From the NCBI GenBank assembly GCA_002633005.1, contig NMRA01000032.1, positions 228,911 through 292,910 of the forward strand: DNA of 64,000 nucleotides, given 5' to 3'. Position numbers and translations under genes: made by a program. This document shows positions 2,952 to 60,300 of this stretch, piece by piece. The notes beneath the pieces were generated by a model that saw only the letters and a list, made by a program, of their open reading frames with translations, was not told the DNA's origin and searched no databases. Position 1 is the stretch's first letter, and each line of letters starts with the position of its first letter. The DNA is from Phoronis australis (lineage: Eukaryota; Animalia; Phoronida).

Positions 2952-4970
2952 GTAGGTGAAGCTTCCATGTATTTAGTGGGATGTCTTACAACTATGATCG
3001 AAGAGTTATGCCTACATGTCTTTCGAGCGATCAATTGTTTGCTTGCGGCGACATTGTGTAAGCCTATACCGACCGTTGCTAAAGTAAACTCTGTGAGTTA
3101 CATTAGAAATTGGCGCTCTCATTCATTGGCGCCAATCTTCCAAGTTAAAAGCAGGAATCGACTAAAAAATTCCCCATGTCACAGATTGGAGATTGAAGGC
3201 CTTGTTGGGTGTTTTTTCCCAACGTTCCCTTGTAATTCCCTACAAGCGTTGGTCCAGCTTGCTTGCCAAAGTTCAGCAGACTTTGAAGAGAGTTTTCGAA
3301 ATTTCCTCCAAACCTTTGACATGGGCGGCGCACCATAGGGGGCTGTTGGGGGGGGGGGGGGTTGGGCTATAGCCCCCAACTTTTTTCAGTGCTACGCCGC
3401 ACATGGTCTATAGGCGGTGCACCACAGGGGGGCTAAAAGGGCTTTAGCCCCCCAACTTTTTTCAGTGCTGCGCCGCCCATGTAATTGAGGGTTGTCGAGC
3501 GTTGCACAACATTATATTGATTCAGAGAACTGGATAGGAAAGTCGTTTTTAGTATATGTAAATAGGTCAAAACGGGTTTGATGCCCTTTTAAGTATAGAG
3601 ATCACAGGCCAAAAATTCCCAGACGCGTTCATGTAAACTGGCAAAAAATGCTTCCTAATATATGATTACGATTCATTTTCTTTGGTTGGAAATTATAGGA
3701 GCAAGAACACAGGTGGTGCGCTGTGAGTAGTTCAGGAACAAACTTCTGGTGGATGAGGTGAACCTGAACTGCAAGTGGGTGGATTCCTTGAGCGAACCTC
3801 AATGGGGGAGGGGGGGGGGTGCGTTCGTCTCATCCCTGGTTGGCTATACGACCATGAATACTGATATCAAAGTTAACTATACGAACAATAATAACAAATA
3901 CATAAATAACTAAAATTAAAACACTCTAACGAACAAGCACTTGGCGAAATGAACAAAATGAAAAAGATATCAGCCACAAAAGTAATTGTTTCAGGGTCAA
4001 CAAGACATTTGTTTTCAAATTGAATGTCGCTTCCAGAGTCACCAATTACGAATCGCCGTTTACTTATTGATTCTTAATGATAAGCCGTGTGGTTATTTCA
4101 GCGTTTAAATGCCCTGTCGATGATTGGGACAACGATTCAAACAATTGGTGCCTTCGCTTATACGTCGACCCGAATGCCCAGAATATGTCTGAATGGAGCG
4201 AGGCACAGATGCTGTGCCTCCGCGATGCCCAACCGGGCCTGGCGTGTCCCAGTACAAAGGAACGATACGACATTCTTACGGAGTTCTTGACAATCCAAGG
4301 TAAGAGCCGGATTGTTAAATATGTATCCAATGCCATCCACTTCATGTTTGAAAGTAATATGTATGTTTTGTAGGCCCTATTTCTTTAAGAATGATGGTAT
4401 CACACAAAAAATAAGTTGGCACATGCCACGTCCGAAATTCCGATTACCGTAACCATTCGGGTGTAAGCCCACCCGCTGCCAGCGGACAAATCTCCACACA
4501 TTAGCATTTTACATAAGTTATGTCCCAGTATTTCCCCACAACGACGAGGCTTCAGGGCCGCCACAATTAAAAATTTTCCACTGAATCTCCAAAACAGTTC
4601 TAAATATGTCTTCGCGAACCAATTTTAATCAATTACGCTACATGTCGAATTAGCCAAAATTGATGGATGCTGGAGTTCTTTAACTCCATCCTCATATACC
4701 AATGAACAATTTACCTGGAACACTGGCTCTGGTTTAACAACGCTTCTTTTGTTTATAGGCGTAAAAACCACGCCATGGATAGGACTGTTTTACAACAGTT
4801 CGAGTTCTTCATGGGAATGGACAAACGGCGATCCCTATACGTTCAGTCTCTGGGAGAACACAACGTCAGGAGATCCAAGACATGGCACGTGCGCTACCAT
4901 AGAGGTGAACAAAGGTTTTCGGGTAGTGGATTGCCAGAGTTTGCAGTACAGAATATGTAGTGTAGAATAG
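2609..4970 (+). CDS. Secreted PAN/apple-domain + C-type lectin-like domain protein, 3 exons (2609-2951, 4102-4299, 4759-4970), 250 aa
   Basis: Hydrophobic N-terminus; CAFAC..CLSYNF..CELN PAN motif; CP..W..WC, WSEAQMLC, WIGL, WEWTNG, CATI, C..C lectin-fold pattern. Two phase-1 GT-AG introns join into a 753-nt open frame. Confidence 0.85.
3320..3481. mobile_element. Tandem pair of short G/C-run MITE-like elements in intron 1 of the lectin gene
   Basis: Outer inverted repeat catgggcggcgca / tgcgccgcccatg; the internal unit ggcggcgcacca..ggg..agcccccaactttttt cagtgct occurs twice. Confidence 0.65.
4102..4299 (+). CDS. PAN-CTLD gene exon 2 (N-half of C-type lectin domain)
   Basis: tttcag acceptor, G|gtaaga donor; FKCPVDDW..WSEAQMLC. 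Confidence 0.85.
4759..4970 (+). CDS. PAN-CTLD gene exon 3 (C-half of C-type lectin domain, stop)
   Basis: Pyrimidine-rich ..ttatag acceptor; PWIGL..WEWTNG..CATI..DC..IC, TAG. Confidence 0.87.
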
Positions 4971-6213
4971 AAAAATATCATGGGCCTATTCAAAATTCTG
5001 TGATGGAGGATCAGATTCGTGTTCTATGTGCGACCTGACTATGGTACACTAGAGTAGATTTCTTGGCTTTTGAGTGACTGTTGTAGATATTCTTCTGAAT
5101 TATCATAAGTGTTTATTTCTGTCATAATTAGTTCTTACAGTACTGCTGTAATTCATTCGTGACTTCTAATTGGCTGGTTTATTACTGTCGACCTTAATTT
5201 CATCACACTGGTACCCTTTTTGACTATACCCCGCACCACCACGTGGTTTTAGTTTTACATATATCATAACCAAAAATGCCTGTCCATGTCCAAGAAGGAG
5301 AATGGAAACTACTTGGCTTAAATTGATGCACTTATTTATTTTCATTCTGTATAAAACATTCCAAACAATTAATATCACAATCGGGAAGACAAGCAATCCA
5401 AGGGAACACCTAAACAATGGAAAACCATTTTGTTACTATGTAGGCCAAATCTACGCCATTTATCCCCTTAATGTCGTTAAGGTTGCACACAAACACACAA
5501 ACAATTTGTAAACACAAAGGTAGAATTTGTGGTAACGTTCATTTTAATGAACTTACTGCAAAAACTTGACCGTGAAAATCTTGTAGCACCATTATCCTAA
5601 ATCCTCATCTTTTTTACATGTATATTAGTTCAAAACTCTTAGTTGTAAAGTGACCTAAGAATTGTTGAAAAAGGAACAAAGTGTACAATTGAGCACTAGA
5701 GATGTAACGTTCAGAATTTCCGTCACCATGTGACGTTTGTTAAATAATATCTCACTGAACAGTTTGAACATAATCACTAGTATCAATAAAAATAGATTCA
5801 ACCTGAACACGTGTTTTCACACCGAGATTCTAACAAGTTGCATAGTTAATCCACTAACACACAAACCGTGCAGGTGAATGCCAACTAACTTAACACGGAT
5901 TCTGCTCCTCTTCACTATGCACTCACTCAATAGAGTCTTGCAGCTACATTAAAATTCGCACAAGTCGGATAAAAAGCAGACAGAGATTTTGTGCAAGGAA
6001 GACAAAATCTGACTTTCATCTGCAGAGCCGAGTGCATGACGTTGGAGAACCATATCGCATGCCTCGGCTCGAATTAAACGAAATCCAAGTTAAGTGCGTC
6101 TGGCTAGTGCATTCGCTGGCCAGTTTCAGAAAACTGCTAATTTAAAAATCTATTATATAACTAACTCTCCACCATATGAGTATTTAGTCTGCATTGTACA
6201 AGTTGTTTCTCAA

Positions 6214-6315: not shown

Positions 6316-9300
6316 CTGTAAAGTGAGGCAGTAAACAACATTAGTATAATGTTTAAATACACACATACACGCATAAATGTATAATCACACACATGTGGGT
6401 GATTTTGTAGGTAAACAAATGATAAAATGTCATTGCCAACAAAAACAATTGGCAAACATATCGCTACGAACCTTGGTGAATGAAAACCTAATAGCATAGC
6501 AGTGACTAGTCATTTAACTTCAGAAAACAAATTGGCAGTTTACTGCAGATGTAACATTTTCACCAAAAAAAAAACACAAAAATGGTTGCAAAAGAACTTG
6601 TCCTTACCTGCCCAGTGTATTCCGTGTCTGGTTTATTGATCAAGTGCATTAAAAAGAACATGTAGTTAGCAAAGTTGTGTTCATTCATCACATGTTTCTC
6701 AAACCCATGCGGCACTGCATCAAAGTACTCCTTGCCAATACCACAGATGAAACACTTGGACTGCAAGAAAACACAATCATCTATAATACATGATTTTGAG
6801 TAGCAAGCTCCACGTAGGCGAGGCTGGGCAGTTATTGGTGTAGTTTTAAACCACCCCGAGTATCCAAACAGTTACCATGTATCACTGTAGACAGACATGT
6901 CCCTCTTCTAAAAAATGACCATTAGGCAGTACATCTCATTTTCCAATTTGCAACAGTATGAATGCTTCTTACTGGTTAGGATTACAATAGGCACTTAACC
7001 ACAGTGACTGGAATTTTAAAAGCGATTTCTTTTGTTTGGAGATTCGGGAACAGAACTGAGTGTCAGCAGTCATGGCAACCCATTTTAAGAAGTGCAAACT
7101 ATTGAAACTAAACCATACTTGAAAATTGAACTTTTTCACTCTTTCAAAAGCAATTAATTGAAAATCGATTAACTACAACAGAAGAGAAAATGTACATTGC
7201 AATTCTAGCTGTCCCTTTGTTGATATGTTCCAAGTTATATTGTGTAACCTTCTTGAGCAACACAGTGGGGCGATTTTTCTTGAGTACACGCCATCTCCAC
7301 AAATATGGCACTTATCGGAATGATCTTGACACCCCCAAAAATGTACCAAATATTGAGCGTGAGAGCACGTCATGACATTTTTGGGCCAAATTGTCGAAGC
7401 TACGATTTGTCCGTCATGCGTTGTGTGATGCAATAGGCAGTCATCCTTTAGTAAATGATTATTTCCTGGTTAATTTAGGTATTTCATAAGTTCAAACATA
7501 TGATTTTCTACGTTTAACAGAGTAAGCAAACAGCAACAATAGAATGTCAAAGGGGAGAACGCTCATTCATTACTACGGTAGCCACATCTTGAAGTACTAC
7601 AGCGACTCTGATTCTGAGGTATTTATCCACAATGCCGTCTGTCAGTAAGGCACCTACATACAGCATACAGCTGCTGTAATTATCAGTATTTGTCAAGGAC
7701 ATTTATTTTGAATTCGTCATTCTAATACCGAGTGATTTTCACTACTGACAACAAAAATGCAATGCGGGCTGCAGTGTACTGCACTTTTATTATTTATCTT
7801 TGCTCAGAAACATTTAGCGGCCTAATAACCTTTCGAAAACTAGGTCAATGAAGCAATGTGTTGCCATACCCCTGCGTAACAGGAGAGTTGAATTTGGGAA
7901 GTACATGTTAGATTGAGTATATCAGAATCCATGAAAAACTACAAGGTTAATGTCTTATGACAATTTTGGCTATCGCTTTAAATGAAATCGGAAAAGAATT
8001 ACAGTGTGTTACCATATAAACATTACCCACATATTCAACGTCTAATATATCATTTATAAGCAAACTGCTATGACCAGTATGTACTGTTATAATATAAACA
8101 TTACCTCCATATCTTCAACTACTTGTTGTAACTGATCTCTCAATTCACCAAATGCATCGATGATCAGACCTGAAAGTTGGACAAATAGGTTAACAATTCA
8201 AGTTTGTTCGAAATTTCAATGCCTACACAAATTGACGTAAAGTTATACTGATTAGTCTACACAAACACAGATCCAGGGCCCAATGTCTAATCCCCAAGCT
8301 TGAACCTGAAGAACTTAAATATTAGTCTTGACATTTTTTCTGCTCCACTTTAAGCTTAGTAATACATAGAAAAATTTTTACACTTAATGACCCCACAATC
8401 GTCCTCGCCTAGTGAACATTCCCTTTCGTTGTTTTCTTTAACCTTCTTACCTTGAATAATGGCGAGAAGAATGACAATGACGAAGAAGAAGAAAGTGATG
8501 TCAAACAGAATACGGACGAACTCTGTTGGGTCGCCGTCTGGAGCTTCAATGGCATCACCAATACCACCGCCTTGTCTGACGCCAATATACAGATGGAACA
8601 CAAAACACTGCAATAAACAAATACATTCTGGATCACGCATAACCTTGTAAACAAGGTTCTGATTGGTTGAGCAAAACCAAAGTTTCGTAGTTGTGCTAAT
8701 ACCAAAAGAATTATTAACATTTTTCAACCTGCTTACGTGGCAACATGTATTTTATTGTTTGCATTAGTAAGTTTTTAATTAGTGATATTGAATAACACGT
8801 AGCACCTAATTTTGAATTTTTCTGACATCGTACAATTGTCCATGTTACGTTTAGGCACTTTAAATGGAAAGCCGTAGAATTGATTCCTGTCAATGTAACT
8901 GTGATCTCCACTACAAATTTCTTTCAGTGGTATTATGGTCAATATGTTACAAAATATCAACTGGTCACAAGGGCAATGTCGGATTATACGAAGTGCGGGA
9001 GAGCAATGTTGCCCTTTTCTGATAGGACTGGTCTGTTTTATCATACAATCACTGATATTTATTTCCTCAGATTTCCAAGTCCGTTTAATTGACACATATT
9101 TTTACTTCCTCAATGTAATACCATAACGTTCTCACAGTCAGGAGCCGATACTTTTAGCATTATGTAATTGGTCACATCACACATAGCAACAGATGTGACC
9201 CCACACATAGCAACAGATGTGACCCCACACATAGCAACAGATGTGACCCCACATCTAGCAATAGATGTGACCCCACACATAGCAACAGATGTGACCCCAC

Positions 9301-18300: not shown

Positions 18301-21300
18301 ACTTCAGTTTTAACAATTATAATTTCAGTTCTTTTGAACTCATTAAAATCTCACCAATTTTAAACAAAAATAATTGCTAAAGACGGCTTTTTTTCATTAT
18401 TAAATATAGATTATTACATGGCGAAATCGTTATCTCCCGCAATCTAAAGCCAGAGTGGATTTTGGATTATTTTCCAAAATCCACGTAGGCTCTAGATAAG
18501 GGGGATAACGACTGAAAACGTGTAATAAATAATCTATTTATACCACATACTGAACGAGAAACATAGCAATGAATCAATCTATCTTTCTCGACTCGCCTCG
18601 ACTTTGTAACTACTTTCTATGTCAGAGGCCCGGGGTTGAAGGTCATGACCTTTTAAGAAAAGCCGAGCTATTTTTGTCAAAATGTTTTTACTCAACAACG
18701 ATTGAGAATTTAAACAAAAATAGAAATAAAGTGAATCTATAAATTAAGTTTTAGCAATAGGTCTAGCTTACTACACATTTTATCATGCTAAGCTTTGACC
18801 GTGAAAATATCGTCTGCTAAAGTTGGTTACCGTTGGTTAGTGAGTATAATGCCCAAGTCAAAGGATCCTGACAACACAATGCCTGCATTCAAATTAGAGA
18901 TCGATGATTTACAAATGAGAGAAAATGAGAGATAAATTTCACTGAATTAAACTATCATTTTTATCAAAATTATGCTTCTTATTTTTCATAGCGTATAAAC
19001 ATCGGTACAATGCCGTTTGTTGAACATGCAATTATTGCACGTGCTCATTTAAGTATTCAATTATCACATTCGATGACGTCAGCCGCTGAGTGGTGCAGTG
19101 GTAATTAAAAAGTTGACGACTCGAAACTCTTGCGGAGTGAGTTCGAAACTGGCCTCAGTTCACGCCAAAATGTTATTCAACACTGTTGAATAACTAAAAG
19201 GGTTATTTAACGGCTGTATTGGTAATTCTAGACTGATATTGTGGTATAAATGCTTCTAATGTTGTAAATACCCATTATATCCTAGCTAACTTCAGTCCGA
19301 CAAGAACTTTGGTATATAATATAAAATTTATAACATTTTAACTTGGTGCTACTCATCTTTCTTGGAAAAAAATGAAAAAATTCACTTATTCGCCATCTTA
19401 TGTCCTGAATTACTGAGACTTTACTGTTCATTTACTTTGCAAAAAACAATGTTGCGTCACTTCAAGAGGTGGGCAGTGCGCTCTTTTCACATCTGAGTCA
19501 GCTAAGCTTGTTTTGCCTTCTTGGTACACATAAATCGAGTAATCGTGCAACACTCACCCTTGTTCTGATGGCGCAGCTCCACCTGTCAGCTGCATCATCC
19601 TCATGGCTTGTTCTTCAGCACTGATGTCATTGGCATGCTGCATCTGAACAGGAAGTGTGATAACATGCATAATGGACTGGTCCATGATTTTATGAGGGGT
19701 GTGCAATATAAATTTATTATGTTAATAGATATTTACATCCAACATGTTTGCAGGCTTGAAATACTTAATAATATGAAATATTATTTAAATCAGTTACAGT
19801 GTTGCTTTAACAGATGAAAAATAATTATGCCTTCTTGGAAACTGTTAACAACACAGCTGCTCAATTTGCATGTTGCTTTGTGTGAGGGACATGATGTCCT
19901 ACCACGTACTGCACATTGTACATGGCAGCTCTATCATCGGTGCTAACATCCAATTAAGTCAGTTCTGTGCTCCCAATTGAAAGTTTCAGTTAACCCTAAC
20001 CAACAGCATGCTGCACCTATAAAAGGGGTCCTAAAACTCATGAGGTCATGATTTTTACAGTCAACAGGCACAAAGTTCATTGGTATAACAGGGGCATCAT
20101 TTGGGAGTATAGACAAGACCAGGCAGCTCAAGGAGGTCATTGAATTCAATGGACCACTGTGTTTGCATTAGGAACATTCACTTATGTTTCATGATCGAAA
20201 GACGGTACTTTTCCATCTGGCCCAGGTCCGTCATTAAGAAATCCAAATTACTAAAAGGGAGTTACTGTCACAGTCACCATACTTATTGTCCTCGTATCTT
20301 TGTGTCCCTTAGTTTTAGCACATTGGGATAAGTTTTCCTCATAAAAAGCAAATGGATTATTATGAAATATGGTACAAACCTCAAATATCGTGTCTTCACA
20401 AAAGTTAACAAACAACTCCAGTTTTTCCTTATCGCCACCTTCGTTGACACAATTGTGCAAGAACGATCTCTTCGAGTCCTGCAAATACACCACATAGTCA
20501 TTTTAACTCCTCTTCCTAAAGAATCAGTGCTTTTCAATACAAGTAATATTAGCCTGTAAGAATTTAGAATGTAAAAGCTCTACCTTAAAGCCAATAAAAA
20601 CCACATTCTTTTTTTTTAAAACATCAACTTTCTTCCTCCAGAGGGACATACTGCCTTGCCAATTTAAACTAAACCAAAGTGACGGTCCCAGACTGAAGCA
20701 ATAACAACTTCTTCTCAAGCTTAAAGCTCATTTCTAAATCTGAATATGCAAGGTAAGCGGCCAAAACCAAATGTTGGTCTTTGATAAAAGGCACAAATTC
20801 ATTATTTCCTCTTTAAATGGAAAATCTGACTTCACAATGACATCTATGGCTGAAAACTCGGTTTCACCTTAATTTGTGGTTTCTCCCACTGGTCGATATG
20901 TTGCTGCTTGATTTCAAAGTAGACTCGCTCTATGCGGTTGGCACTGCCCATGATTTCTATACGACCTAGANCTAACTGGTATTATAGCATGCCAGGCATA
21001 CAACACTTATAACCTCCCTGTGGCCGGTTCGCCCCCACGCTTGCCGACGTACTTGTTTACCGGTTTAACCACAATGCAACATTCTGACCCATTTCCAATA
21101 TGGCGGCGTTGCAACTCCGCTATTAAGTCAGTTCTGGGCTCCCAATTGAAAGTTTCAGTTAACCCTAACCAACAGCATGCTGCACCAATAAAAGGGGTCC
21201 TAAAACTCATGAGGTCATGATTTTTACAGTCAACAGGCACAAAGTTCATTGGTATAACAGGGGCATCATTTGGGAGTATAGACAAGACCAGGCAGCTCAA

Positions 21301-24300
21301 GGTCATTGAATTCAATGGACCACTGTGTTTGCATTAGGAACATTCACTTATGTTTCATGATCGAAAGACGGTACTTTTCCATCTGGCCCAGGTCCGTCAT
21401 AAAGAAATCCAAATTACTAAAAGGGAGTTACTGTCACAGTCACCATACTTATTGTTCTCGTATCTTTGTGACCCTTAGTTTTAGCACATTGGGATAAGTT
21501 TTCCTCACAAAAAGCAAATGGAATATTATGAAATATGGTACAAACCTCAAATATCGTGTCTTCACAAAAGTTAACAAACAACTCCAGTTTTTCCTTATCG
21601 CCACCTTCGTTGACACAATTGTGCAAGAACGATCTCTTCGAGTCCTGCAAACACACCACATAGTCATTTTAACTCCTCTTCCTAAAGAATCAGTGCTTTT
21701 CAATACAAGTAATATTAGCCTGTAAGAATTTAGAATGTAAAAGCTCTACCTTAAAGCCAATAAAAACCACATTCTTTTCTTTTTTAAAACATCAACTTTC
21801 TTCCTCCAGAGGGACATACTGCCTTGCCAATTTAAACTAAACCAATGTGACATGCGGTCCCAGACTTAAGCAATAACAACTTCTTCTCAAGCTTAAAGCT
21901 CATTTCTAAATCTGAATATGCAAGGTAAGCGGCCAAAACCAAATGTTGGTCTTTGATAAAAGGCACAAATTCATTATTTCCTCTTTAAATGGAAAATCTG
22001 ACTTCACAATGACATCTATGGCTGAAAACTCGGTTTCACCTTAATTTGTGGTTTCTCCCACTGGTCGATATGTTGCTGCTTGATTTCAAAGTAGACTCGC
22101 TCTATGCGGTTGGCACTGCCCATGATTTCTATACGACCTAGATATGGTTCAAAGTAGTCCAGCACAGAGCGGGCCCTCTCCAGGAACCTCTCGAGCCTGA
22201 GCGACAGAAAAATATATTTAAAGTAAAGATTTATTTAAAAACAAGTCAATACATGTGAAACAGATAATACAGAATTTCATGAACCACAAGAGCACAACTA
22301 ACATACAGTAGAAGATATAGGTTAAAAATACATCTCTCCATCTCTAAAACAAAGGAATACTTTTGCCTGTCATCAAAAATATTGTAACACAGAGCTGCAT
22401 AATTCACACAATAGTTTACTCTGCTAAAATAATATCAGTAATAGCTATCAGTATCTTATCACAGTGAAGAGGCATCAATGTACAACTAAAAAATTCAAAG
22501 GAAACTACACTATGCTTTGCCCACAGTTTAAATACACAACATTACATGCCATTTTCCCTGCTGCATAAAACATGCAATTGTCACCATAGCCAAAATAACT
22601 AATCTTGTCTGAGCCAGCATCAGAAACACACAACACATAGACCAGGTAATTCCTAAAATAACAAATCAAACTGGTGACAGTCATCTAAGGAAGAAGTACA
22701 GTGTATCAAGTGTGCATAACTCACCTGGGGTCACTAGTGTGTTCCGAGAGGTTGGTGAATAGGAGGGCTACGTTGAAGCCAATGTCTTTGGCTGGATTGT
22801 GGAACCTTTCAGTGAACTCATTGAAGTCCACCTTGCCATCTTGGTTGGCATCCACACACATCATAATGTAATCAATCTCTTCACTATAAATGGACAGTTA
22901 AAATCTTTAAGTATTGATTAATATTGTTTGCTTAGTCTTTAAGCCCACTTTATGTCAAAAAATTAATTAGATACTTACAGTTATAAGGTGGATCACAAAG
23001 TGTTCTTCAACCAGATTCAAAGTGATTTTTGGGTCCGGGGTATAACCCCTGTACTGGAAACTCAACTCGAAAATTGTGTCCAATAGCACGTATGCCATGC
23101 TTTGAGTACACTAATTACAAATTTACAATTGAATCATCCAATGTGTTTAGTTAAGTTTTGAGTCTCGGTCTGTGTCCTAGTCAAGTCTGTGTTCGGAGAT
23201 TAGATCTAGGGCCAATTTGGAAGAACTGGAGCCTACTTAGTGCTCAAGACTCAGTTAAAGAAGCATGGCTTGACCCGGATGGTCACTTTATGTGCAATAC
23301 CCGGCCTCAAGCACTGACAAACTTTCAAGTTTCCACTAAGCCCTAAGTTGCTCCTAATCTGAATAAGAAACAAGTTGAGACCTGCAGTTTTTTATCGTTC
23401 ATAAATAAAAAGAAACAGCTGATGAAAAAGTAGTAAAAGGACAATTCTGTAATAAAATTGTTGTCATTAAAATTTCAACTTCTTATCACAAAGATAAGAC
23501 TCTTTAATTTGTTAATAACTGAAACTTTTCAGCAGTTTCCAATGAAACAAACAATTTTAATATTTACATCATAAAACTTTTCTTACCAGCAAGACATTAC
23601 ATACTCCAAACTCATTTGTTACACTGCTATTACAACATTTTAGAATTAAAATTAAAACTTTATTGAAAATTTCTGAAAATATAAAAGTCTTACTCGTGAA
23701 TGCAACAAATCCGTTAGTAAAATCAGAACTCAACATAAAATGGAATATCCAAGACATGCATAAAATAAACAATGTCAACAGGACATCTTGAGAGACGGTT
23801 TCCATTCAACATGTGATTATGGCACGCAGAGAAAGGAACAGTGAGAGATCAATAGTCAAGGCAAAGAAGTCACAAAACTCAGAGGTATGAAATGTGATAA
23901 TAGTATATAAAATAATATAAAAATCATCAGTATCAATATCAGTATCTATATCAATATCAGTATCAATACAGTTGTGTCTTCTGAAGAGAATGCAGTCAGT
24001 ATGATAGATTCTGAGATTGCATGTCATTTGTCAGATCAAACTACTGAAGATTATCATGCCAGCAGAATTTTCTTTCGACATTCTTCGTTTTTGCAGTTAT
24101 ACCAAAATGCAGACATACGCAGCATCATTAAAGTTAGTGCGGCCCGAATGTATGTCTTTTGTGAGATCATTAAAATGTTGACCACATCATCACTAATCAA
24201 CAAGCGTACATTTTAGCCAAGGTCTTTAAGCAAATTGCAACATAAATGACAGTTTATGTGGATAATCTTTAACAAAGTATCCCCAAATGTGGTTAGTATT

Positions 24301-27300
24301 ACCAATTGTACATTCATTAAAATGCCATTCTGAATATCAATCTGACCACAAGAAACAAATTTGTAAAATGTTTAGGTCAACCATATTACGAAAACTGACT
24401 AAATTAAACTGCGAAGTAAATTTTTGAGCCAGTCAAATTTACAGACTGATCACGATTCACTTGAAAGGTCAATAAGTTTACTTACTAAATATCAAGAGTA
24501 CATAGTTATCCTGAGAATGCTACAGTCACTTCAAATTCCATAAAACAAATGGGAATAAAACTCGGGTTTGGGACTCCGCATGCCAACAGTCTTACTCTGA
24601 ATACAATTTTTGCTCTCGGAGAGCCACCCGGAGTTCTTTGGGTGACACAAAACCATCCTGATTCTGGTCGATCGCCTGATGAAGAAAGAAACACTTGAGA
24701 AAGGCATGAATAAGACTGGTAAGCTAAACACAAAAAGCACTCGAGAATACTTGATGGAGAATACAAACCGTGTGTACAGTTTTTGACCTTGCATAGCAGT
24801 TCGGAATTCCCGGGCAGAAATGTAGCCATCTTTATTTGTGTCGAACTCCTAGGAGAGGAAACAACAGTGTTGAGAGGCAGGGGAAGACAGACAGACAGAC
24901 AGGCAAGGATACTGGCAAGGGATGCAGCCGATGACAGTCGTAGCAATTAATCCATGCTGAACTGTTTCATGCATAGCCAGCTTTTCACAGGCAGTGTAGG
25001 GGTTAACAACACCATTGTTTGCATGGTAGCTTATAGTCAACGACCAGCACAAAACCTTCCCAAACGTCCACTGTTCTGCAGGACAGTGGTATAAATGGCA
25101 ACACATATTCTGCCACAGTTTGTGAAATTAGTATTGTTCATGAAAATGATCTTCAGGCTAACAGCTTGTCCATCAAAGAGGAGATAAGAATTTTCAACTG
25201 CCATGTAGTGGAAATGACTTCACACTTTTCCAGTCATCTCCATGTTTCCATCCTTTTTCAAGCCTTTTTCTTCTGGATTACATAGAATGCAGATTTGTAT
25301 ATCTCAGGTGGTCTTAAAATCAAACTACCCACTGCATGCAGAATGGTTTGCTTTGGTCTGACAATCATAGAGTTAGGGCCAACACTACAAGCACTAGATT
25401 GTTTCAGAGGCATCCTTGCAGGCATTACTACATTCTGCCTCCAGGTGTCACCCCCGATGCATAGCTGGCTTGGCATACTGGTCAGACAACATGCCCGCAC
25501 TTACTATCTGTACATTTTCTGCGCTTCCATGGCCTTTCGAAACTCTTTGGGAGACAGAAAGCCATCGCAATTCAAGTCGAAAGCCTACATATAATTAAGT
25601 CAAAAAACAAAACATCACGTTAACTCCATTCCAAAATCAAACGCACAAAGGTGTGGGATCTCACAAACCAAACACGCTCTCAAAACTATCGTCAAAAATA
25701 AACCACAGTGCTGATCAACTCAGGAATATTAATCAATGCAAACTGGAGTAAATGTAAATGTTTGCATACATGCACGGTGCATTTTTTAGAAAAGAAAACG
25801 CAGATGCAAAACAATGCATTTAACGTAGGGACTCAAGAGGAAGCAATTTTTGGGGCTATTTTAACAATAGTCAGAACAACACACCCAAACAAGGCAAACG
25901 TTATGCAAGAAGGTGCATTGGCTTGTGTTTAGGGAATGTCTAAGAGATAGTTACGCATGGGGGACAAATTAGGTTCAAAAAAGATGTCATCTGGATTAAC
26001 GTTTTGGGTATGTCGGAAAGGTTTACTAGTTCTGGACACTGCAATAGTTGCAGAGAGCAGCTGGAAGTCTGAGCATGCACTGAAAGTAAACACCTGTACA
26101 CAAATATCGATGGCTGTATATTCATTATCAAAATTTGCCAATCCTGAACAATGCTGAATTGAATTAAGGGTCATATGGAAATTATTTTGTAATTTTACAC
26201 AAATTATTAACATTACTATTTCCTAATTGTCAACGACTGACGGTCTTACCACAAATAATCATTATTGCACACAATGTTCCAAAACAGTTCCAAGATGGTA
26301 AATGAAGTAAAAATCTCTTACTGCTAATTTTGATAAGAAATTTGACAAATTAAATCGCAAATTGTCTGTCATATTGTGTGCTCAGCAGGTGAAAACTTAT
26401 ACAAATTCCTAAAAAAATATGGTAAAAAATTCAATTTTGGACAAAATAATCCAAAAAATAGCCATTTTTGCTATTTTTCAGAGGCTTAGTACACCACTAC
26501 CTGACCAGCGCAAATTTTTATCAAAATGCTGTTTTGTGACAGCTATACCACACAAAACTTGCAAACTTTTGTTTCACTTGTCTGTCATATCGACTGTCCT
26601 AAGCAGAAGAACTTTTACTTTAACCAACTGAAATGAATGCTAATCTTAATTGGGTGACGGTGTCTTACTCAGTACGCTTTTAGCCTTGTCAAGACTTGAA
26701 AGAAGGGACGGTTTTGTTGACTGCAGCTTGCTATTCTAATATAAAACACTGCAGTCCCAGTTCACAACACAAAATGTTTCACTCAATCAGACATGAAATA
26801 TCATGAAAACTGATTATTTAATGATTTACCAAGAAAGCCTCCGAAGTAGTAAGACCCTTCATCTTCAGGAAGATGTCAAAAAATTTCAGGATCATCTGAA
26901 ACAGAAAATCACAACAACAGATCTAGAGGTGTCAATTTCATTTTCTCATCCCGAAGCTTTGCCTGATGAAGTTTTGAGAACTGTTAACTGTCCACGCAAT
27001 AAACTTGCGCTGCAGGCATTTAGACGTTAATTCACAGCTTAATTTACATACTCACCATTCTGATGAATCTATTGCCAGAACTGATCTAAATGACATAGCC
27101 AAGATATGCATCCAGAGAAAAGTGTCATTGACAGATAAATGCAAAAACCGGTTACATTGAACAGATAGTGAACTCCGAGAAGACATCTACTGTAAGACGA
27201 TACAATGATAGATATCAGGCTACTATAACCAAATATACGTAAGTCAAAATGACTTTCAGTGAGAACTAGGTCCATTTATTCCATCACACTGCCCATTGAA

Positions 27301-30300
27301 TGGGAAAAATATGGACTTAGAGGTCTGTCTCCAAAATATGTGCTAAGCTTATCACCATAGCTGGACACTGGTCATGTGCAGTGACTTATCTCTGGACAAC
27401 TCTTAGGTATATCAACGAACACATCTCCCTTTAGTATTGAAGTCCTGCTTTAGAAACAGAATGCCTTTGGAATAACTGACAACATGATGCTAAAATACAC
27501 TCAAGGAAACATTACTATTTACAAAACTTCACTACTAAGACGTGTGTCACAAATATCACACTAGACAACTTCTAGAAAGCCAAAAACTGGTCATACGAAT
27601 CATTTCCTTGTGGAATACTTTACGAAATTTATGAGCAGGGTAAATTTTGTCTGGGAATACAATTCCGCACTGCTATGTACAAACCTCGACATTGGAAGCA
27701 GACTCCACCAACGTGTCTACCATCTGTTTACCAATGGGCCCATTCATTACATTACCTAGAAAATATCATGAAATTCTGATAACAAAAAATCAGCAAAAAA
27801 GTTGGTGAAACACACAACCAACGTAAGGCGTAAATACCCATCCACTAAATAGAAATGCTCATTACTTTCCAGTTACAGAATAACTAAGTTTAAGACCTAC
27901 AATTACAAGGGGAGTTATCAGAGAATTAGGTTTTACAGTTTATCGATACCAGAAAGAGAAATATTCATGCCCAATTTGGTTTCCAATGCCATGTTTTTAT
28001 AAAACAACTTCTCTCCACCATTATTTGTGAAAGGGAATCATTTCAAGTTGGGACATAAGTAATTACTCTACTTGACGTGTTCTTCCATTTTTCAAAAGTT
28101 TGCCACAATGCTGCACTGAATACCCAAAATTATACCATGAAAATGTTGTTTAATGACAGCTCTTAATTGCATACCACATTAACAACGAAGCAATTTTTTA
28201 CACCCCAAAAGTAATTGGAAAAAATATTGTTTCCCATTCATAACTACTGATGGCCAGTCATGACCCCCGTGGGGGAATTCTGCTGTCATGAAGGAGAACT
28301 TCACTTGAGTTCAGCCATAATGACAGGGAATTCTGGGTCATTTTATCTGATTATTTTTGTTGTGTATTGTAAAATTAACAAAATAATTCTTTTAAGTCCT
28401 ATTACATTGTAACATGTAGCGCTTACCTTCCAACATGGACAGTAACATAATCATCATTTCCTTCATCAACTTCATAAACTCTCTCAGTAACTCCAACTGT
28501 TCAGGGTCCTATGCAAATAAATAGTTTGTCACCGTTACGATGTTTGATTAAAACAAGACCTGGAGTTTTATTTTTTAGTCAAAAGGAATGGGGACTTGGA
28601 GATTTAAATTAGTAATCTACTTTTGTGCCACCTTTTCTTCAATAATTTTTCAATATCGACCTATAAAAGTATTATACTCCATAAAATAATACTGAATCCT
28701 TATATCGAAATATCAAGTAACCGTTCAAAGTTGTTCAGTTATTCTATCGGATTTTAACTTGTTACCAGCAAAATCTGTGTCAAATTCTTTATTCAACAAG
28801 AACTTTGTTTTGGCAAGCATGTTGATGGAGCAGTGCTGCACTTAGTGATCTCAACATCTGTTTCTGAAATTTCAGGGATATGTAGTTGTTGACCTTAACT
28901 TCACATGACATTCAAAACTGAGAATGCATATACCTCATAAATGCTGAAAACGTAGTCACATACCTTCGAAAGCTTGTCTTGCATGTGAGCGAAAATGAAT
29001 AGGAATCCCCCCACGGCATCCCATAGCCTACTGTGGGCGAGGGCAAGTTGGTTTAAAGAACATGGACCCTGAAACACAACAATAGTACAAGCTGTAATAT
29101 ATAGACGGAACCACATCATTTTGTGAAATAATGTTAAATACTCAAGAAATACATCATATAACTTGTTCTAGACATTCACGTTTACTTACAAGAGGACTCA
29201 GCTACTCAACTCTCCATAGGGGATAATAAAACAATTATATTCTCAGCCAGAATCATAAGCTTTTGATAAGCTAACTGGGACAGCAAAAGTAATAAGTGTG
29301 TGGGATAAAAACTACCCTACCATTGACACAAAGTTATAATGGGATTTGGTGGTAAGGTGTTAATCACAGATATTCCCAGCTCTGTATACTTACTTGAATG
29401 TACTCAGTGAGTGTCCTGAACACCTGTTTGGAGACATTAATGGCACGACAGAAGTTCTCTTTGCCAGCTGCATCGATGGTGGTCTTGTTGGAGTAGTGCC
29501 AGTAGAAATCCATGATGGATTCTTGGATACGCAGCAGGTAATCCACAGTGCAGATGACTATGTTGATGGTGGTGTTGTTACCAGCTTGTGTCCGCAGGTA
29601 GTTCTGGAAGTCTGGTAAAATATACAAAGGATTTCATGCCAACTGTGACCATGAGAGAACAGAAAGTTGACTGGACACTTAAACTACTACTTGTACACTT
29701 ATGGTGATTTAATGAGAAAAAATGTAATGAATTTCAGATGACGATTGTCATTTTAGTCACAAATAAGCTCAAATTAACATTGCACAAGAAATTTGTCATG
29801 AGATCACACAATTGTCCAAGAAAACCATCGCACATTCAAAAGTTACACCTGACCTAATATCAGAAAAGGCATTTTGAAAACTGATATAATACCGGACTAG
29901 AAACTTTGAACACCTGATATAGTGTCAATGTTGGCATATTTTGAACGCCTGTTGCAATGTTTAAGCGTGGATATTTGACCACCTGACATCATACCAGATT
30001 CAAAACAATTTGAAATTTGATACAATACCAGAGTGGGAATATTTTGAAAACCTGACAATATCAACTTGGGAATATAATAAACACATGATATAATTTTATC
30101 TCACCTAAGTTGTGGCCCTCACACAGCAGCTGAAGGAACCTGAACAGTTTACATGTAAACTCTGCATCATGTAGATTCTTAACACCTGCTGAGCCTTCTC
30201 CAGTCATTCCTAGATCTTCTGCTTTATTGCACCGTTCAAATGCATCAAGGTCCAATACACTGGAGAGACAAACGTCCAGGTCATCAAATCATCTTGCCTG

Positions 30301-33300
30301 TATGAATGCTTAGTACAAGCCAATAGTATTCAGACAAAATGACCTAGAATTCTACGGCAAACAATTTATTTGGTGCTATTTATTTTAAGACAAAAAAAAA
30401 TCACTTGTTATGTCCACCATACTGCATCCTAAACTCGTGATTTCACACGACTGACAGAATATTTCTTCAAATATTCGTTTAAGAAAATTTTTACACAGCA
30501 TGAACAAAACTGTTTGAGAGAATTTTCGCTTCCACGTGACATAAATCCCATTTCCTGAAGATTCTCCCGTTATTCAATTCATTGTCAATTACCTGCACTG
30601 TTGCATGAACCCAGCCACAGATGTGAACACACCGACATCTTTTTTGTCCATCATGTGTTGCAGCATTTTCTGAAAAGGAAGGAAACGCTGAATTTTCACA
30701 AAGTACACTGTAATCTAAGAGGAACAATGAAAAATAATAAGACCTTGTTGTTTATTCTCTAAAATTATCTTAAAACTACAAGAAGCGCGATCTCAGAAAA
30801 ACAATGCCAGTAGTTTTGGGGTGGAACCTTTTGTTTTTATTAGTTCTTTACATTTTGGGTTTGAAGCGGATAACTAGTTCACAAAGTGGCTTAGAATTTT
30901 GAGGAGGTTGTGAATTGTCACTGTCGTTCACACTCAACAGGCCTCCTGAAATTGACATGCAAGGTCCGTGAAAGGGGTTTCTTTGTGACCCCTGCTTTTA
31001 GTCATACAACTGTCCCAGTTGGACTGTGCAACTATACACAGCTTAACGAAGGGCTTATGGTCTTGGGTTAGAAGCTAATTGTTTTATTACCCTCTACGAG
31101 CTTTGAATAGCCCAGCATGTAATAATACACTGAGAAAGCATTCCTAATTGTGCTATCTAAAACGAAGAACCGGACAGACTTCATCGATTGCTCCAGAGGG
31201 AAGATTCACTGAAGCTAACTTAATTTATTCTAATTGAAATTTGTGATTTTGATTTGACCTAATTAGCGCTGAGTGGGTCTTTAACAGTACAACACACTTA
31301 CAGCCTGTACATCCGTGTTGCCTCCTTTCAGCAATGAGATACCCAGCTCAATAGTATTAGTCACCATTTCACCAGGAACACCTGGAATAAAGTATTCAAC
31401 AAACTCAGTATCATAGACTTCATATATGAAAACTTTAGATTACAGTACACTATAGTATACACAATTATTGAGCAACATATTAACACATATAAAACCGTGA
31501 TGCAATCTGGCTTATGTACTAGAAAAGTTATTATAATGGTAAAGTTATTATAATGGTAAAGTTATTATAATGGTAAAATTTCTTCAAATTAGAACACAAT
31601 ATGGCAGAACAATAAAATTCTACATTACCAAAATTTTCAGCAAAAGTAAACAAGATAATTTTGATTCATTATTTGAAAACATTACTAAGCACGACTGTTG
31701 GCAACAAACACACAATGCCATAGCGATGGGAGCATAATCTCGATATCCATTCATTAGAAGTTTGTTAGAATTACAATTTATCAAACTTCAACATACATGC
31801 AAGTCTTGTTTGCACATGAAATCTCGAAAATAAGAACTTAGCAATGAGCGAGAACCTTCCATTAACAGGCAGGCGTCATAAAATAAAATTACCCTTCTTC
31901 CCAACAGCAAAAATTACACTACTCTGACATTTCGGCTTCCGCCCAGCCATCATGACCGAGAATTGCGAGTCATTTTGACAGACACTTTTGTCTCGTACTG
32001 TATGTGCGCTCCACTTACCTCGACTTGCACTTATATAAAGCAGCACTAACTCTGCACAACTGCGATCAGCCAGACGACCTTGCTCATACAACAACTTCTG
32101 CTTAGCCATCTCTTGTTCCTGAATAAAAGGGTCACAACATTGACAGCACCATACGAGGTGAAATAACTGTCAGCACTATACAAGGTGAAATAACCGCCCA
32201 ATCACGAGCCACCAGAGCGTAAGGAAACCAAGAACTTCGGATTAAGGCCCAAAACATTCAAAATGAAAGACTAAAAATCTGGGTGAAAATCTAGTAGGCG
32301 AGCATCTTAACCTATAAAACAGATATCGCCGTTCAAGCTAAATGCTTCCGAGAAATCAGATATATTAATTTAATAAATGAGCAAAATTACCACCGCATGT
32401 TCAATGAAATAATCAATTGACTCTTTTAAGAATTTAAAATTGCCCTGAAAAGGATTTAACCAATCAAATCATTCCATAATAAGTCACTGTAATAAAAAAG
32501 TAAATAGTGGTTACCATAGTTATGTAATGCCATCACAACACTGCCTGTTAGTAATATCAAGATGTATTTTAGGATGACAAAACCTTTAACTACACAATAC
32601 AACAAGTGGTTCAATGCTAATATTAGAATCAGGGAAACATCTAAAGAGCTGGGGTTCTTGAATCTAGTGTTCATTAGCAGGACAGGTAGACAGCACACTT
32701 ATAAACACAATACACTGCTCCGTGAATGTTCTATTGGCTCACAGGCATGGAACTAAGAATCTCGCAGGGGCACTAAATTTTGATAAGGGAGTCTAAAACA
32801 CTGAGACGTACACTGCAATATCGGCCATTTTACTTTAAATGCTACTGATGCTTGCTTAGTAAGCCAAAAAAGGACATGAGACTTTTTTTTTAAAATTGGA
32901 GTGGTTTCAAGTTACTTTTTTGAAAAAATCATCAGAAACGACTAAAATCGAAGCTGGGGCACTTGTCTGAGTGAGGAAATACATACTTTACGATACAGTA
33001 CAAGCCAAAAGTAGTCAGACAAATGACCCAGATTTCCCGCCATGACGGTAAGGCAGAAGTTGAATTCATCATGAAAGCAGACTTCCCTTATGACAGTTAA
33101 TGAAGAGGAATGAACAGGAGAGTTAGTAAGGTGGCTAATTCATTTCGTAATTTGAATCTTGTCCCCTTAATTTATTATCAATCATTTCCCTTAAGTAGTG
33201 AGCAAAGATTACAAAACGAGTCCAGGTACTGACAAGAACCAATTATGCTCTTTAGCCTTACGCCGGGAGCCGTTCCAAGAAACAGAGTTGAGGTCATCTT

Positions 33301-57300: not shown

Positions 57301-60300
57301 CATAATCTGCTTTCTTGAACTATTTCTACAAAAAGTAGCCACATGAAGAGGGTGCTACAGCGGGAAAGTCGCTTTCTACACATTTAACCGATCAAAACAG
57401 GTACTACTTGAGGAATATCTGCAAGTGCTTAATAATAGGCACTCAATGTTTGTAAGCATTTGAAAAAATGCATTTTATCTCGATCCCAATCTATGCTAAG
57501 AGCTTGGTTCTACATCCCATACTATTGAGCCCCTCCACCTCCACAGCCGTCTTCTCTGTGTGTATTCACCTTTCACTTGGTTTCCAGCATAGGCTCTGAC
57601 TGGTTCCCACCTTTGCTTTGAGCCTGGGTCCATCCGATACTATTAATAAAACTCTACCACCACCCCAACTGATTTCTCTCTTACACCAATATGAGCAAAA
57701 TCTTGAAAGAATAACTTCTAACAAATTTCTAATACTACCGTGTACGTTAACTTTTAATTTTAACTTTTTCCAACGAATGATCTGAATCAACTGAATGCAG
57801 CAGTGCAGCACTGAAATTCCCTAGGTGGTGTTGGAGAACCAATGGCTCACCCAAAATGAATGCATGCAGTCATGTTCCTGTGAGACCTTGTATCTTATAA
57901 ATATGAACATTTTCTCCTTACCCGGCATCAATGGCCTGTACAAGAACTTGAAGACATCTAACAGAAATCTCCACGTCAGGACCGAAGGCTGTGATCTTCT
58001 GTCGCAGCAGTGCTGCCAGTTTGCAAAACAATCTGCATCAAGATGAAAAATGTATTTAACTAAAGCAAAAGTCTGAACATGAAAGTTCACAACACAGTGG
58101 ATACAATGTGAGAATGTACCAATAACATTATGAGTCCCTGTTTTCACATTAGGTTTTTTGACACAAATGCTTATATGGAAATACAAACTTCAAAAGGGGT
58201 TTACAAGACGTATGAAGAGGAGACACAGCAGACAATCCAATGCCACGTTGTAAAGTAATAGGATGTTTTTTATACTGGACTGATAGCAGGTCGTGTACTC
58301 TAACTAAGACATGTTGGCCTCAATTTCATGAAAGATATCAGAAACATACCAAAGATCACAACTTCCAGGTGACTTTCATATATAAATAGATAACCAGGTG
58401 TCATCCAAATAAGTATGGATCATGAACAACACCACCCTGAGCATGTTAGGTTCTTTTATAAAGGGGTGCAAACAACGTTGCTGTTGCACTCATGACCTTA
58501 TAGTTCAGTCTGCACTTATAAACAAGGTTCATCGTACTAACTCAGTTCCTTGACTTAAAAACACATGACTGCACATCGACCTCCCAGACTAACACAACAC
58601 CTCATAAACACNATTTTAACTTTTTCTAACGATTGATCTGAATCAAAATGCAGCGGTGCAGCACTGAAATTCTCTAAGTGGTGTTGGAGAACCAATGGCT
58701 TAACCAAAATGAATGCATGCAGTCATGTTCCTGTGAGACCTTGTATCTTATAAATATTAACATTTTCTCCTTACCCGGCATCAATGGCCTGTACAAGAAC
58801 TTGAAGACATCTGACAGAAATCTCCACGTCAGGACCGAAGGCTGTGATCTTCTGCCGCAGCAGTGCTGCCAGTTTGCAAAACAATCTGCATCAAGATGAA
58901 AAATGTATTTAACTACGGCAAAAGTCTGAACAGGATAGTTCACAACACAATGGATACAGTGTGAGCATGTTCCAATAACATTACAAGTCCCTGTTTTCAC
59001 TTAGGTTTTTTGACACAAATGCTTATATGGAAATACAAACTTCAAAAGGGGTTTACGTATGAAGAGGAGACACATACTATTAGCAGGCAATCCAAAGCCA
59101 CGTTGTAAAGTAATAGAATGTTTTTCATATTTGACTGATAGCAGGTCGTGTACTCTAACTAAGACATGTTGGTCTCAATTTCATGAAAGATATCAAAAAC
59201 ATACCAAAGATCACAACTTCCAGGTGACTTTCATAATAACCAGGTGTCATCCACATAAGTATGGATCATGAACAATGCCACCCAGAGCATTATGTTAGGT
59301 CCTTTTATAAAGGGGTGAAAACAACGTTGCTGTCGCACTCATGACCATATAGTTCAGTATGCACTGATAAACAAGGTTCATCGTACTAACTCAGTTCCTT
59401 GACTTAAAAACACATGACTGCACATCGACCTCCCACACTAACACAACACCTCATAAACACCCCAAAAACATACTTCACTGACTCATAAAATTCTCTGATC
59501 ACAAAATTGGCCATATTTTAAATATTCAGTGACTAGTGTGAATCATGTTTATAAAAGAGTAACTATGTCCATAAGTGTGGCCATCCGCGAGGACCTCCAC
59601 CAATTTTAAATGGACTGAACCTGCTCCAGTAGTCACTGTTCACTGCCTCCCTACAGAGGTACTTCCTTATACCAACAGGTGCCACTAGGAATTATTAATC
59701 TCAAGTGACATGGCTTTGCAAGAGACATTTCAGTCAAATACTTACACTGCTGTCATTTCTTTCTCCTTCACAGAAGCCATACCTCCACCAGGGTTGGGGT
59801 AGGCAGGTGTGGCTATGAAGTACATCTGGTGAGCCTCAAAGTATCTCTCCACCAACGGCAGCACCACCTAGGGACAGACAAACGCTGCATGATAGATAGG
59901 TCTCTGCATTATACAAAATTTTGCCTTCGGGTAATTTGCAAGGTGGTATCTTAAAGTGGTGAGGAATTGCATTCATGATGTTGCTTCATGAGTCGTACAT
60001 AGCACTATGTGGCGGACAAATATAACTTAACATTCTGTCCAAATTCTCAACAAAACCAACAAAAATGAAATCTACTATTTACTTGGTTTGCATTGGGTAG
60101 AAGAAAACAACATTTAGTTAAAGTTTTTATTATTTGCAGAACATCAGCCACATTTGAAAAATAGAGGAAGACAATTTTGGCGATTATTTTTGGGCAAAGT
60201 AAGTGAAGAACAGTCAACACAGAAACATCCCACGTACTTTGTTCGCAATTTCCTAAACACACCTAACATTTGTCCAGAAGACCATCACACCCCTCATACC

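Follow-up and report, generated by a model that had tools for sequence, protein, structure and literature searches.

The window, a stretch of 64,000 nucleotides from Phoronis australis, encodes about 2,250 C-terminal residues of a ryanodine receptor (RyR) down its minus strand, and the exons described here belong to this gene. The exons matched the RyR C-terminal domains in order, including the EF-hand pair (EF1-EF2), the S2-S3 loop and the pore. When EF1 was excluded, the identity to RyR proteins was 63-76% over about 1,387 shared columns, the best value (76%) being that of the Lingula RyR. In a quick tree, mollusc RyRs formed a clade that excluded the window RyR (SH-aLRT 100), and a shorter tree joined the latter with Lingula (support 88/85). 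The gene thus belongs to a non-mollusc lophotrochozoan, perhaps, on weaker grounds, to a lophophorate. Solved structures, when searched directly with the S2-S3 exon, returned a chance match only.

Tandem EF1 exons in the ryanodine receptor gene

EF1 is encoded by three exons (A, B and C) placed between two constitutive exons (Table 1), with intron lengths of 1245, 656, 93 and 1712 nt across the cluster. According to the alignment and the numbering in section 6 of PMC12119028 (this and the other PMC sources are cited for the parts available), the EF1 exon corresponds to rabbit RyR1 residues 4079 to about 4105. All three exons have AG/GT borders, enter in phase 0 and leave in phase 2, and their split codon is finished by the single base at 22883, producing Y, R or D. 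Pairwise, they share 12-15 of 26 amino acids and 48-52 of 80 nucleotides. They are thus homologous exons in tandem, located in one intron space, with equal length and phase and canonical splice sites. A previous sequence-only reading had proposed this arrangement, and its coordinates, lengths, peptides and borders were all reproduced, together with the loop pattern D-x-N-x-D-G-x-hydrophobic-S-x-x-E in each exon and the divergence at about half of the peptide positions.

Table 1. Window coordinates of the EF1 exon cluster and associated features of the RyR gene
Feature	Position	Strand	Description
EF1 exon A	25505..25584	-	80 nt; borders tatgtag / gtaagt; profile scan and Pfam match
EF1 exon B	24769..24848	-	80 nt; borders tcctag / gtttgt; weak donor GTTTGT; both joints in reads
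EF1 exon C	24596..24675	-	80 nt; borders catcag / gtaaga; downstream joint in reads
Upstream constitutive exon	26830..26895	-	66 nt; helix entering EF1; phase 0 end; joints 26895-27685 and 24847-26829
Downstream constitutive exon	22725..22883	-	Split codon, EF-hand 2 and start of next motif; matches RyR2 4063-4111 and RyR1 4107-4159
AG-free pyrimidine-rich stretch before exon B	24849..24913	-	Nearest upstream AG 65 nt off; putative role in splicing of B
B-C intron	24676..24768	-	93 nt; branch-point candidates at distances of 48, 57 and 61 nt to the B donor
Exon with acidic S2-S3 loop	11876..12004	-	Predicted EF-hand contact partner on the neighbouring subunit; contact known for RyR1 (PMC10832476)

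When the eight possible inclusion patterns were joined in silico, the transcript stayed open and in frame only with A, B or C singly, as had been claimed, while skipping all of them or joining any pair or all three to the flanks led to stop codons. A six-frame profile scan of the whole window scored the three exons, themselves the training set, at 92-98, and no other site exceeded 17 (background -29.5 ± 9.7), indicating that the window holds no fourth EF1 copy. Pfam EF-hand_1 matched A, B and C with E-values of 1.6e-5, 2.5e-7 and 1.1e-4, respectively, with only B passing the curated cut-off. Besides the EF1 cluster, no other clearly divergent tandem exons were found in the RyR gene of the window. 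Two near-identical duplications, each at a single N, repeat RyR exons: 19953-20970 / 21122-22142 (N at 20971) is 98% identical and 57757-58611 / 58613-59460 (N at 58612) is 92% identical. Both are likely to represent the two haplotypes assembled in tandem and not alternative exons.

Exon use and splicing choice

Four runs were aligned at 88% likeness, comprising contigs whose RNA status was guessed (X1) and raw RNA (X2-X4), of which about one fifth of each run was read. The joint between the upstream exon and B (26830 to 24848) appeared in three of the four runs (an X1 contig and 3, 7 and 0 reads in X2-X4), that between B and the downstream exon (24769 to 22883) in all four (an X1 contig and 4, 4 and 1 reads), and that between C and the downstream exon (24596 to 22883) in three (an X1 contig and 0, 2 and 4 reads, the last four sharing one start). 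Among the 15 of 22 joints listed for these runs, no joint reached exon A or led from the upstream exon to C (26830 to 24675), and neither A-B, B-C nor full-skip joints occurred at these single-digit read counts. The proposed one-at-a-time use, with three possible EF1 variants from one gene, was supported by both joints of B, the downstream joint of C and the isoforms of relatives (see below), while the joints to A and the upstream joint of C were missing from the listed set. The X1 contigs did not cover exon A; the one on exon C spans about 67-71 of its 80 nt and lacks the upstream part.

Read depth was also compared between the cluster and its flanks. The reference-allele depth of B in X2, X3 and X4 was 5, 9 and 0, with flanking exons at 7-10, 17 and 13-15, respectively. 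Only reference letters were counted for B at variant sites; the extra letters found at 24834/24837 in X2 and X3 had depths of 36 and 28, far above the flanking exons, and likely come from reads of another EF-hand gene. The share of B varied by run, from 9/17 in X3 to 0/~14 in X4 (Fisher p 0.0013, on depths that are non-independent). When all depth in the bin of A was treated as exonic, which makes it an upper bound, the sum of A, B and C reached 8.4, 16.7 and 14.7, and in X4 B and C explained about 5 of the flanking depth of 13-15. This accounting fits well with the use of exon A but is suggestive only, since the intron bins on either side of A showed depths similar to that of the A bin (0.95-2.27 and 0.09-3.57), so that the latter may come from unspliced RNA. 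The sense-strand RNA depth in the introns flanking A (25015-26217) exceeded that of several other introns, possibly reflecting slow splicing or retention around this exon. Short repeats in the window, at ~28320-28360, 30312-30352 and 19000-19100, drew on both strands many reads that come from other parts of the genome.

Evidence of constraint came from the pattern of substitutions. The differences in A, B and C avoided 13 conserved sites of a panel of 44 related variants (P = 0.015, 0.015 and 0.0006, respectively), and simulated neutral decay preserved the borders, the frame and seven key residues in 899 of 100,000 cases at 18% change and in 4 of 100,000 at 36%. All three exons are under constraint, and A looks selected.

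Regarding how a single exon would be chosen, the 3n+2 length was kept in every genomic EF1 copy seen, so that frameshift and decay would remove the wrong combinations. Exclusivity could therefore depend mainly on frameshift and nonsense-mediated decay of transcripts carrying zero or two of the exons. A weak donor combined with a long AG-free pyrimidine tract is frequent in regulated exons; B has both, as well as a candidate branch point ~99 nt upstream, and the choice may be regulated by tissue or stage. The B-C intron measured 93 nt vs 325-789 nt for the eight other read-defined introns measured. Steric exclusion operates when the branch point lies under about 50 nt from the donor (PMC7969005), and one of the candidate branch points of the B-C intron, at 48 nt, lies close to this threshold, the others lying at 57 and 61 nt. 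The former might help B and C to exclude each other, although the A/B intron (656 nt) and the corresponding introns (279-291 nt) of the annelid-like loci L004 and L009 described below are beyond the reach of steric exclusion.

RNA structure and motif tests on the EF1 cluster gave no support for either type of element. In a check for competing RNA pairings to a shared site, as in a Dscam-type docking/selector cluster, the best exon-intron duplex was matched in 19 (A), 11 (B) and 2 (C) out of 25 shuffles. A site at 26083-26115, complementary to B, was rejected as an RNA docking site because its duplex (-23.0) fell short of the strongest ones obtained by shuffling (mean -30.1). GCATG (10 vs 4.1 expected) and TGCATG (5 vs 1.6), which we take to be RBFOX-type motifs, were likewise discarded as evidence, since the antisense strand held 8 and 3, the L004 cluster had no TGCATG and six motifs had been tried.

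EF1 versions in relatives and their age

In 13 out of 19 named lophotrochozoan species, considering the matches listed, the database isoforms exchanged precisely the EF1 segment, which occurred in two or three versions with the same flanks on either side. These 19 are the named molluscs, nemertean, annelid and brachiopod with at least two EF-covering records each, and their RefSeq isoforms are automatic gene models. The species with multiple versions were Lineus, Ostrea edulis, Magallana gigas, Mercenaria, Ruditapes (three versions), Mytilus galloprovincialis, Pomacea, Biomphalaria glabrata, two Haliotis, Octopus bimaculoides, Gigantopelta and Bradybaena. M. angulata, Littorina, Elysia crispata, Mya, Capitella and Lingula showed one version among the matches listed, which does not amount to absence of others because it covers those matches only. 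A single EF1 was found in 169 of 170 records of relatives (near-duplicates included, among the matches listed). The sole exception was a Plakobranchus gene model that joins both versions, and a 50% representative search revealed no second double-EF1 RyR model beyond it.

At the DNA level, 72 loci were fetched and 65 scanned. Locus L004, nearest to annelid proteins, contained four 80-nt EF1 copies with AG/GT borders and the annelid-like L009 at least two, while clitellate-like contigs spanning both flanks (10/10) and rotifer-like loci contained one. A single form was also found, among the matches listed, in lamprey (15/15 records) and Haemonchus (10/10 records). Several crustacean-like loci doubled the preceding 66-nt exon instead, and alternate versions of this pre-EF1 exon appeared in 1 of 8 Penaeus isoforms and 4 of 11 from Tachypleus; this arthropod duplication concerned L053, L055, L060, L061, L062 and L064 and the proteins P0200 and P0211. 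The EF1 cluster is widespread in Lophotrochozoa and already stands, without comment, in automatic annotations, something which the sequence-only reading had missed.

These loci presented additional features. The counterpart of the exon at window 21546-21644 was doubled, as divergent copies in tandem, in L004 (11122-11390), L007 (4288-4921) and L009 (2031-2300), making these annelid-like copies a candidate second exclusive pair. In L004 (~5690-5933), the initial part of the exon corresponding to window 29394-29611 also occurred twice in tandem. A near-invariant 38-nt intron element followed the R-type exon (see next paragraph) in L004 (~9150-9200) and L009 (~150-200), with the same predicted hairpin, a prediction made with no shuffle control. 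In a divergent RyR (P0039, P0228, P0022 and P0030), the only EF1 form resembled exon C (16/26 amino acids); both grouped in the tree with support 94/91, both being long branches.

The mollusc EF1 versions were labelled R and E (E/D) after their usual last residue, and a profile classifier of these types was correct in 26 of 28 cases with the genus left out. B scored +9.4 bits (R), C -14.4 (E) and A +7.2. B was identical to a Mytilus R form at 23 of 27 amino acids (tree 99/98) vs 12-14 of 26 with its own neighbours. The R-type copy preceded the E/D-type copy in the window, L004, L009 and Plakobranchus. Moreover, the donor CG|GTnTGTAT was common to B, L004 e3 and L009 e1, and the donor GA|GTAAG to C, L004 e4 and L009 e2; the type of L004 e3 is ambiguous when its last residue is disregarded (-2.1 bits). 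Exon A had an R-leaning peptide, but its donor and first residue were C-like, and its best counterpart among 44 other rows compared shared 19 of 27 amino acids. Trees of the 26-27 amino acid segment gave little resolution, and in a 27-column tree neither R nor E emerged as a clade, each being present in 16% of the bootstrap trees. The correspondence of B and C with the two types of molluscs makes it likely that this pair is older than the mollusc split. On these sequence comparisons, B and C quite probably represent an ancestral pair, followed by later additions and losses, and A is likely a lineage-specific third copy that was added later.

Altogether, these results favour a reading in which A, B and C are tandem EF1 duplicates, A is likely spliced as well and the choice of one for each transcript likely gives channels predicted to differ in shut-off coupling; we assign this reading a probability of roughly 0.6. 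An assembly artefact, whether from collapsed haplotypes or from paralogues, deserves hardly any credence: the window does have two artefact-like duplications at single Ns, but the EF1 copies are only 60-65% identical, their introns are unrelated, no N lies inside the cluster and, for B and C, reads joining both to the same downstream exon refute it. The old duplication claimed previously was upheld. It is unlikely that only the ancient B/C pair is functional, with A an additional copy that is silent or in decay. Such a view would explain why neither the 15 of 22 joints listed nor the X1 contigs reached A and why A has no close counterpart among the 44 rows. However, at ~36% nucleotide divergence from its neighbours, A still has strong borders, its frame is open and none of its ligand residues is lost; B and C leave room for it in the depth of X4, and there are three annotated forms in Ruditapes and four copies in L004.

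A true affinity switch, in which the variants would differ mainly in how tightly EF1 binds Ca2+/Mg2+, as in alpha-actinin, seems similarly improbable. The affinity of an EF-hand can be shifted by residues of the loop and helices other than the ligands. Moreover, an in-frame AG at nt 3 of B would drop Glu1, and the in-frame AGs inside C, at nt 12 and 18, would remove the first ligand Asp. Nevertheless, no use of internal acceptors was seen and the ligand positions are the same in A, B and C, whereas only one version of ACTN1/ACTN4 keeps calcium binding (PMC9741552). Even less credible is that clusters arose independently, at a convenient exon, in several lineages and that their versions are functionally near-equivalent. 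The variable copy number (one in clitellate-like contigs, two to three in molluscs, four in L004), the poorly resolved short-exon tree and the convergent tandem-exon events on record for RyR genes (PMC9741552) would agree with it; but B is far nearer to bivalve R-type copies than to its own neighbours, order and donor sequences are common across phyla and the distinct types persist through bivalves, gastropods and cephalopods. Extending our preferred reading, the cluster may be at least as old as the split of molluscs, annelids and lophophorates, may have grown to three or four copies in some lineages and may be the main route to functionally distinct RyRs from one gene, with arthropods taking a parallel route via the pre-EF1 exon. 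We advance this wider proposal tentatively, at somewhat below even odds.

Putative function and comparison with known systems

Loop positions 1, 3, 5, 6, 9 and 12 (D, N, D, G, S and E) are identical in A, B and C, and so is the Gln-Lys at the RyR1 Q4100/K4101 positions. The variants differ in the first residue, at the RyR1 D4079 position (Ala, Glu and Ala, respectively), in the last residue, beside the K4101 equivalent (Tyr, Arg and Asp), in net charge (+1, +1 and -1), at loop positions 2, 4, 7, 10 and 11 and in the exit helix. The identity of the ligand residues and of the K4101-equivalent Lys weakens the idea of a Ca2+-sensor switch put forward by the sequence-only reading. Nor are the three copies counterparts of vertebrate RyR1/2/3, the parallel it suggested, considering that vertebrate EF1 loops are non-canonical (PMC12119028, section 6) and that the lamprey records listed hold one EF1 form.

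The role of the RyR EF-hands is unsettled, with cytosolic Ca2+/Mg2+ inactivation, luminal sensing and calmodulin coupling all proposed (PMC5715910, PMC8301844). Rabbit and lobster EF pairs bound two Ca2+ with millimolar affinity, RyR2 EF-hand deletion left cytosolic activation intact, pointing to luminal regulation, and EF mutants in myotubes caused no major change (PMC5715910). In RyR1/RyR2 chimeras, EF1 outweighed EF2 in the control of isoform-specific Ca2+ inactivation (PMC5715910), an effect argued not to be due to EF1 affinity (PMC12119028, sections 6-7), and K4101 mutants showed weakened Ca2+/Mg2+ inhibition (PMC10832476). Mammalian EF1 apparently acts by coupling to the S2-S3 loop of the neighbouring subunit (PMC12119028, PMC10832476), a contact which the previous reading had cited. 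The S2-S3 loop of the window is acidic and the lineage lacks the Arg that serves as partner in RyR1 (R4736), so the mammalian contact cannot be transferred as such. As mammalian EF1 apparently works via this coupling and not via affinity, we predict graded differences in EF1 coupling among A, B and C. EF1 would bind Ca2+/Mg2+ in all variants, but the strength with which the shut-off signal reaches the gate would differ, the variable residues altering EF1 packing and its contact with the acidic loop and thus shifting the inactivating Ca2+/Mg2+ level. By analogy, the cluster would likely tune inactivation coupling and not act as an on/off sensor switch of the alpha-actinin style.

These exons bear on a long-held idea, namely that splicing stands in for RyR paralogues in invertebrates (PMC7644089). 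The exchange of precisely EF1, with its ligands kept, by a cluster present across several phyla offers ready-made natural variants. If the proposed reading is true, such single-element swaps would settle what RyR EF1 does, and one gene could provide, for example, muscle-type and neuron-type inactivation. The full-text literature searched, mostly that outside subscription journals, yielded no account of alternative exons for EF1 in a RyR. RyR is named among genes with tandem-exon events in three phyla in PMC9741552, whose available part does not give the region and which may bear on EF1.

The EF1 cluster is real, selected and partly confirmed by RNA, and it is apparently undescribed, but it does not constitute a new kind of mechanism. 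Exclusive EF-hand exons are on record for alpha-actinin and CaV2, as the previous reading stated. A close parallel is provided by exons 37a/37b of CaV2.1/2.2/2.3, where tandem exclusive exons of a calcium channel, with a length (97 nt) that is not a multiple of three, swap an EF-hand loop and exit helix, and where the element is thought to act in transduction and not on/off (PMC7235277). However, that pair consists of two copies in vertebrate voltage-gated channels with an EF-hand-like motif said not to bind Ca2+ directly, whereas the window has three copies with canonical loops in an intracellular release channel. Alpha-actinin (ACTN1/ACTN4) shares the tandem duplicated exon substitution within an EF-hand, but one of its versions loses calcium binding (PMC9741552), while A, B and C keep every ligand residue. 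Among RyR genes, insects use exclusive duplicated exons a/b in SPRY2, according to tissue and stage and from a single gene, although these lie at about residues 1135-1165, ~3000 residues upstream of the EF-hands (PMC3989282, PMC8301844). Human RYR3 undergoes a tandem duplicated exon substitution too, affecting a 33-residue exon near residue 3500, ~400 residues ahead of the EF region (as placed by motif; PMC8373072 supplement). The single RyR gene of C. elegans, unc-68, shows tissue-specific splicing, though by way of alternative promoters and cassette exons in DR2 (PMC7644089).
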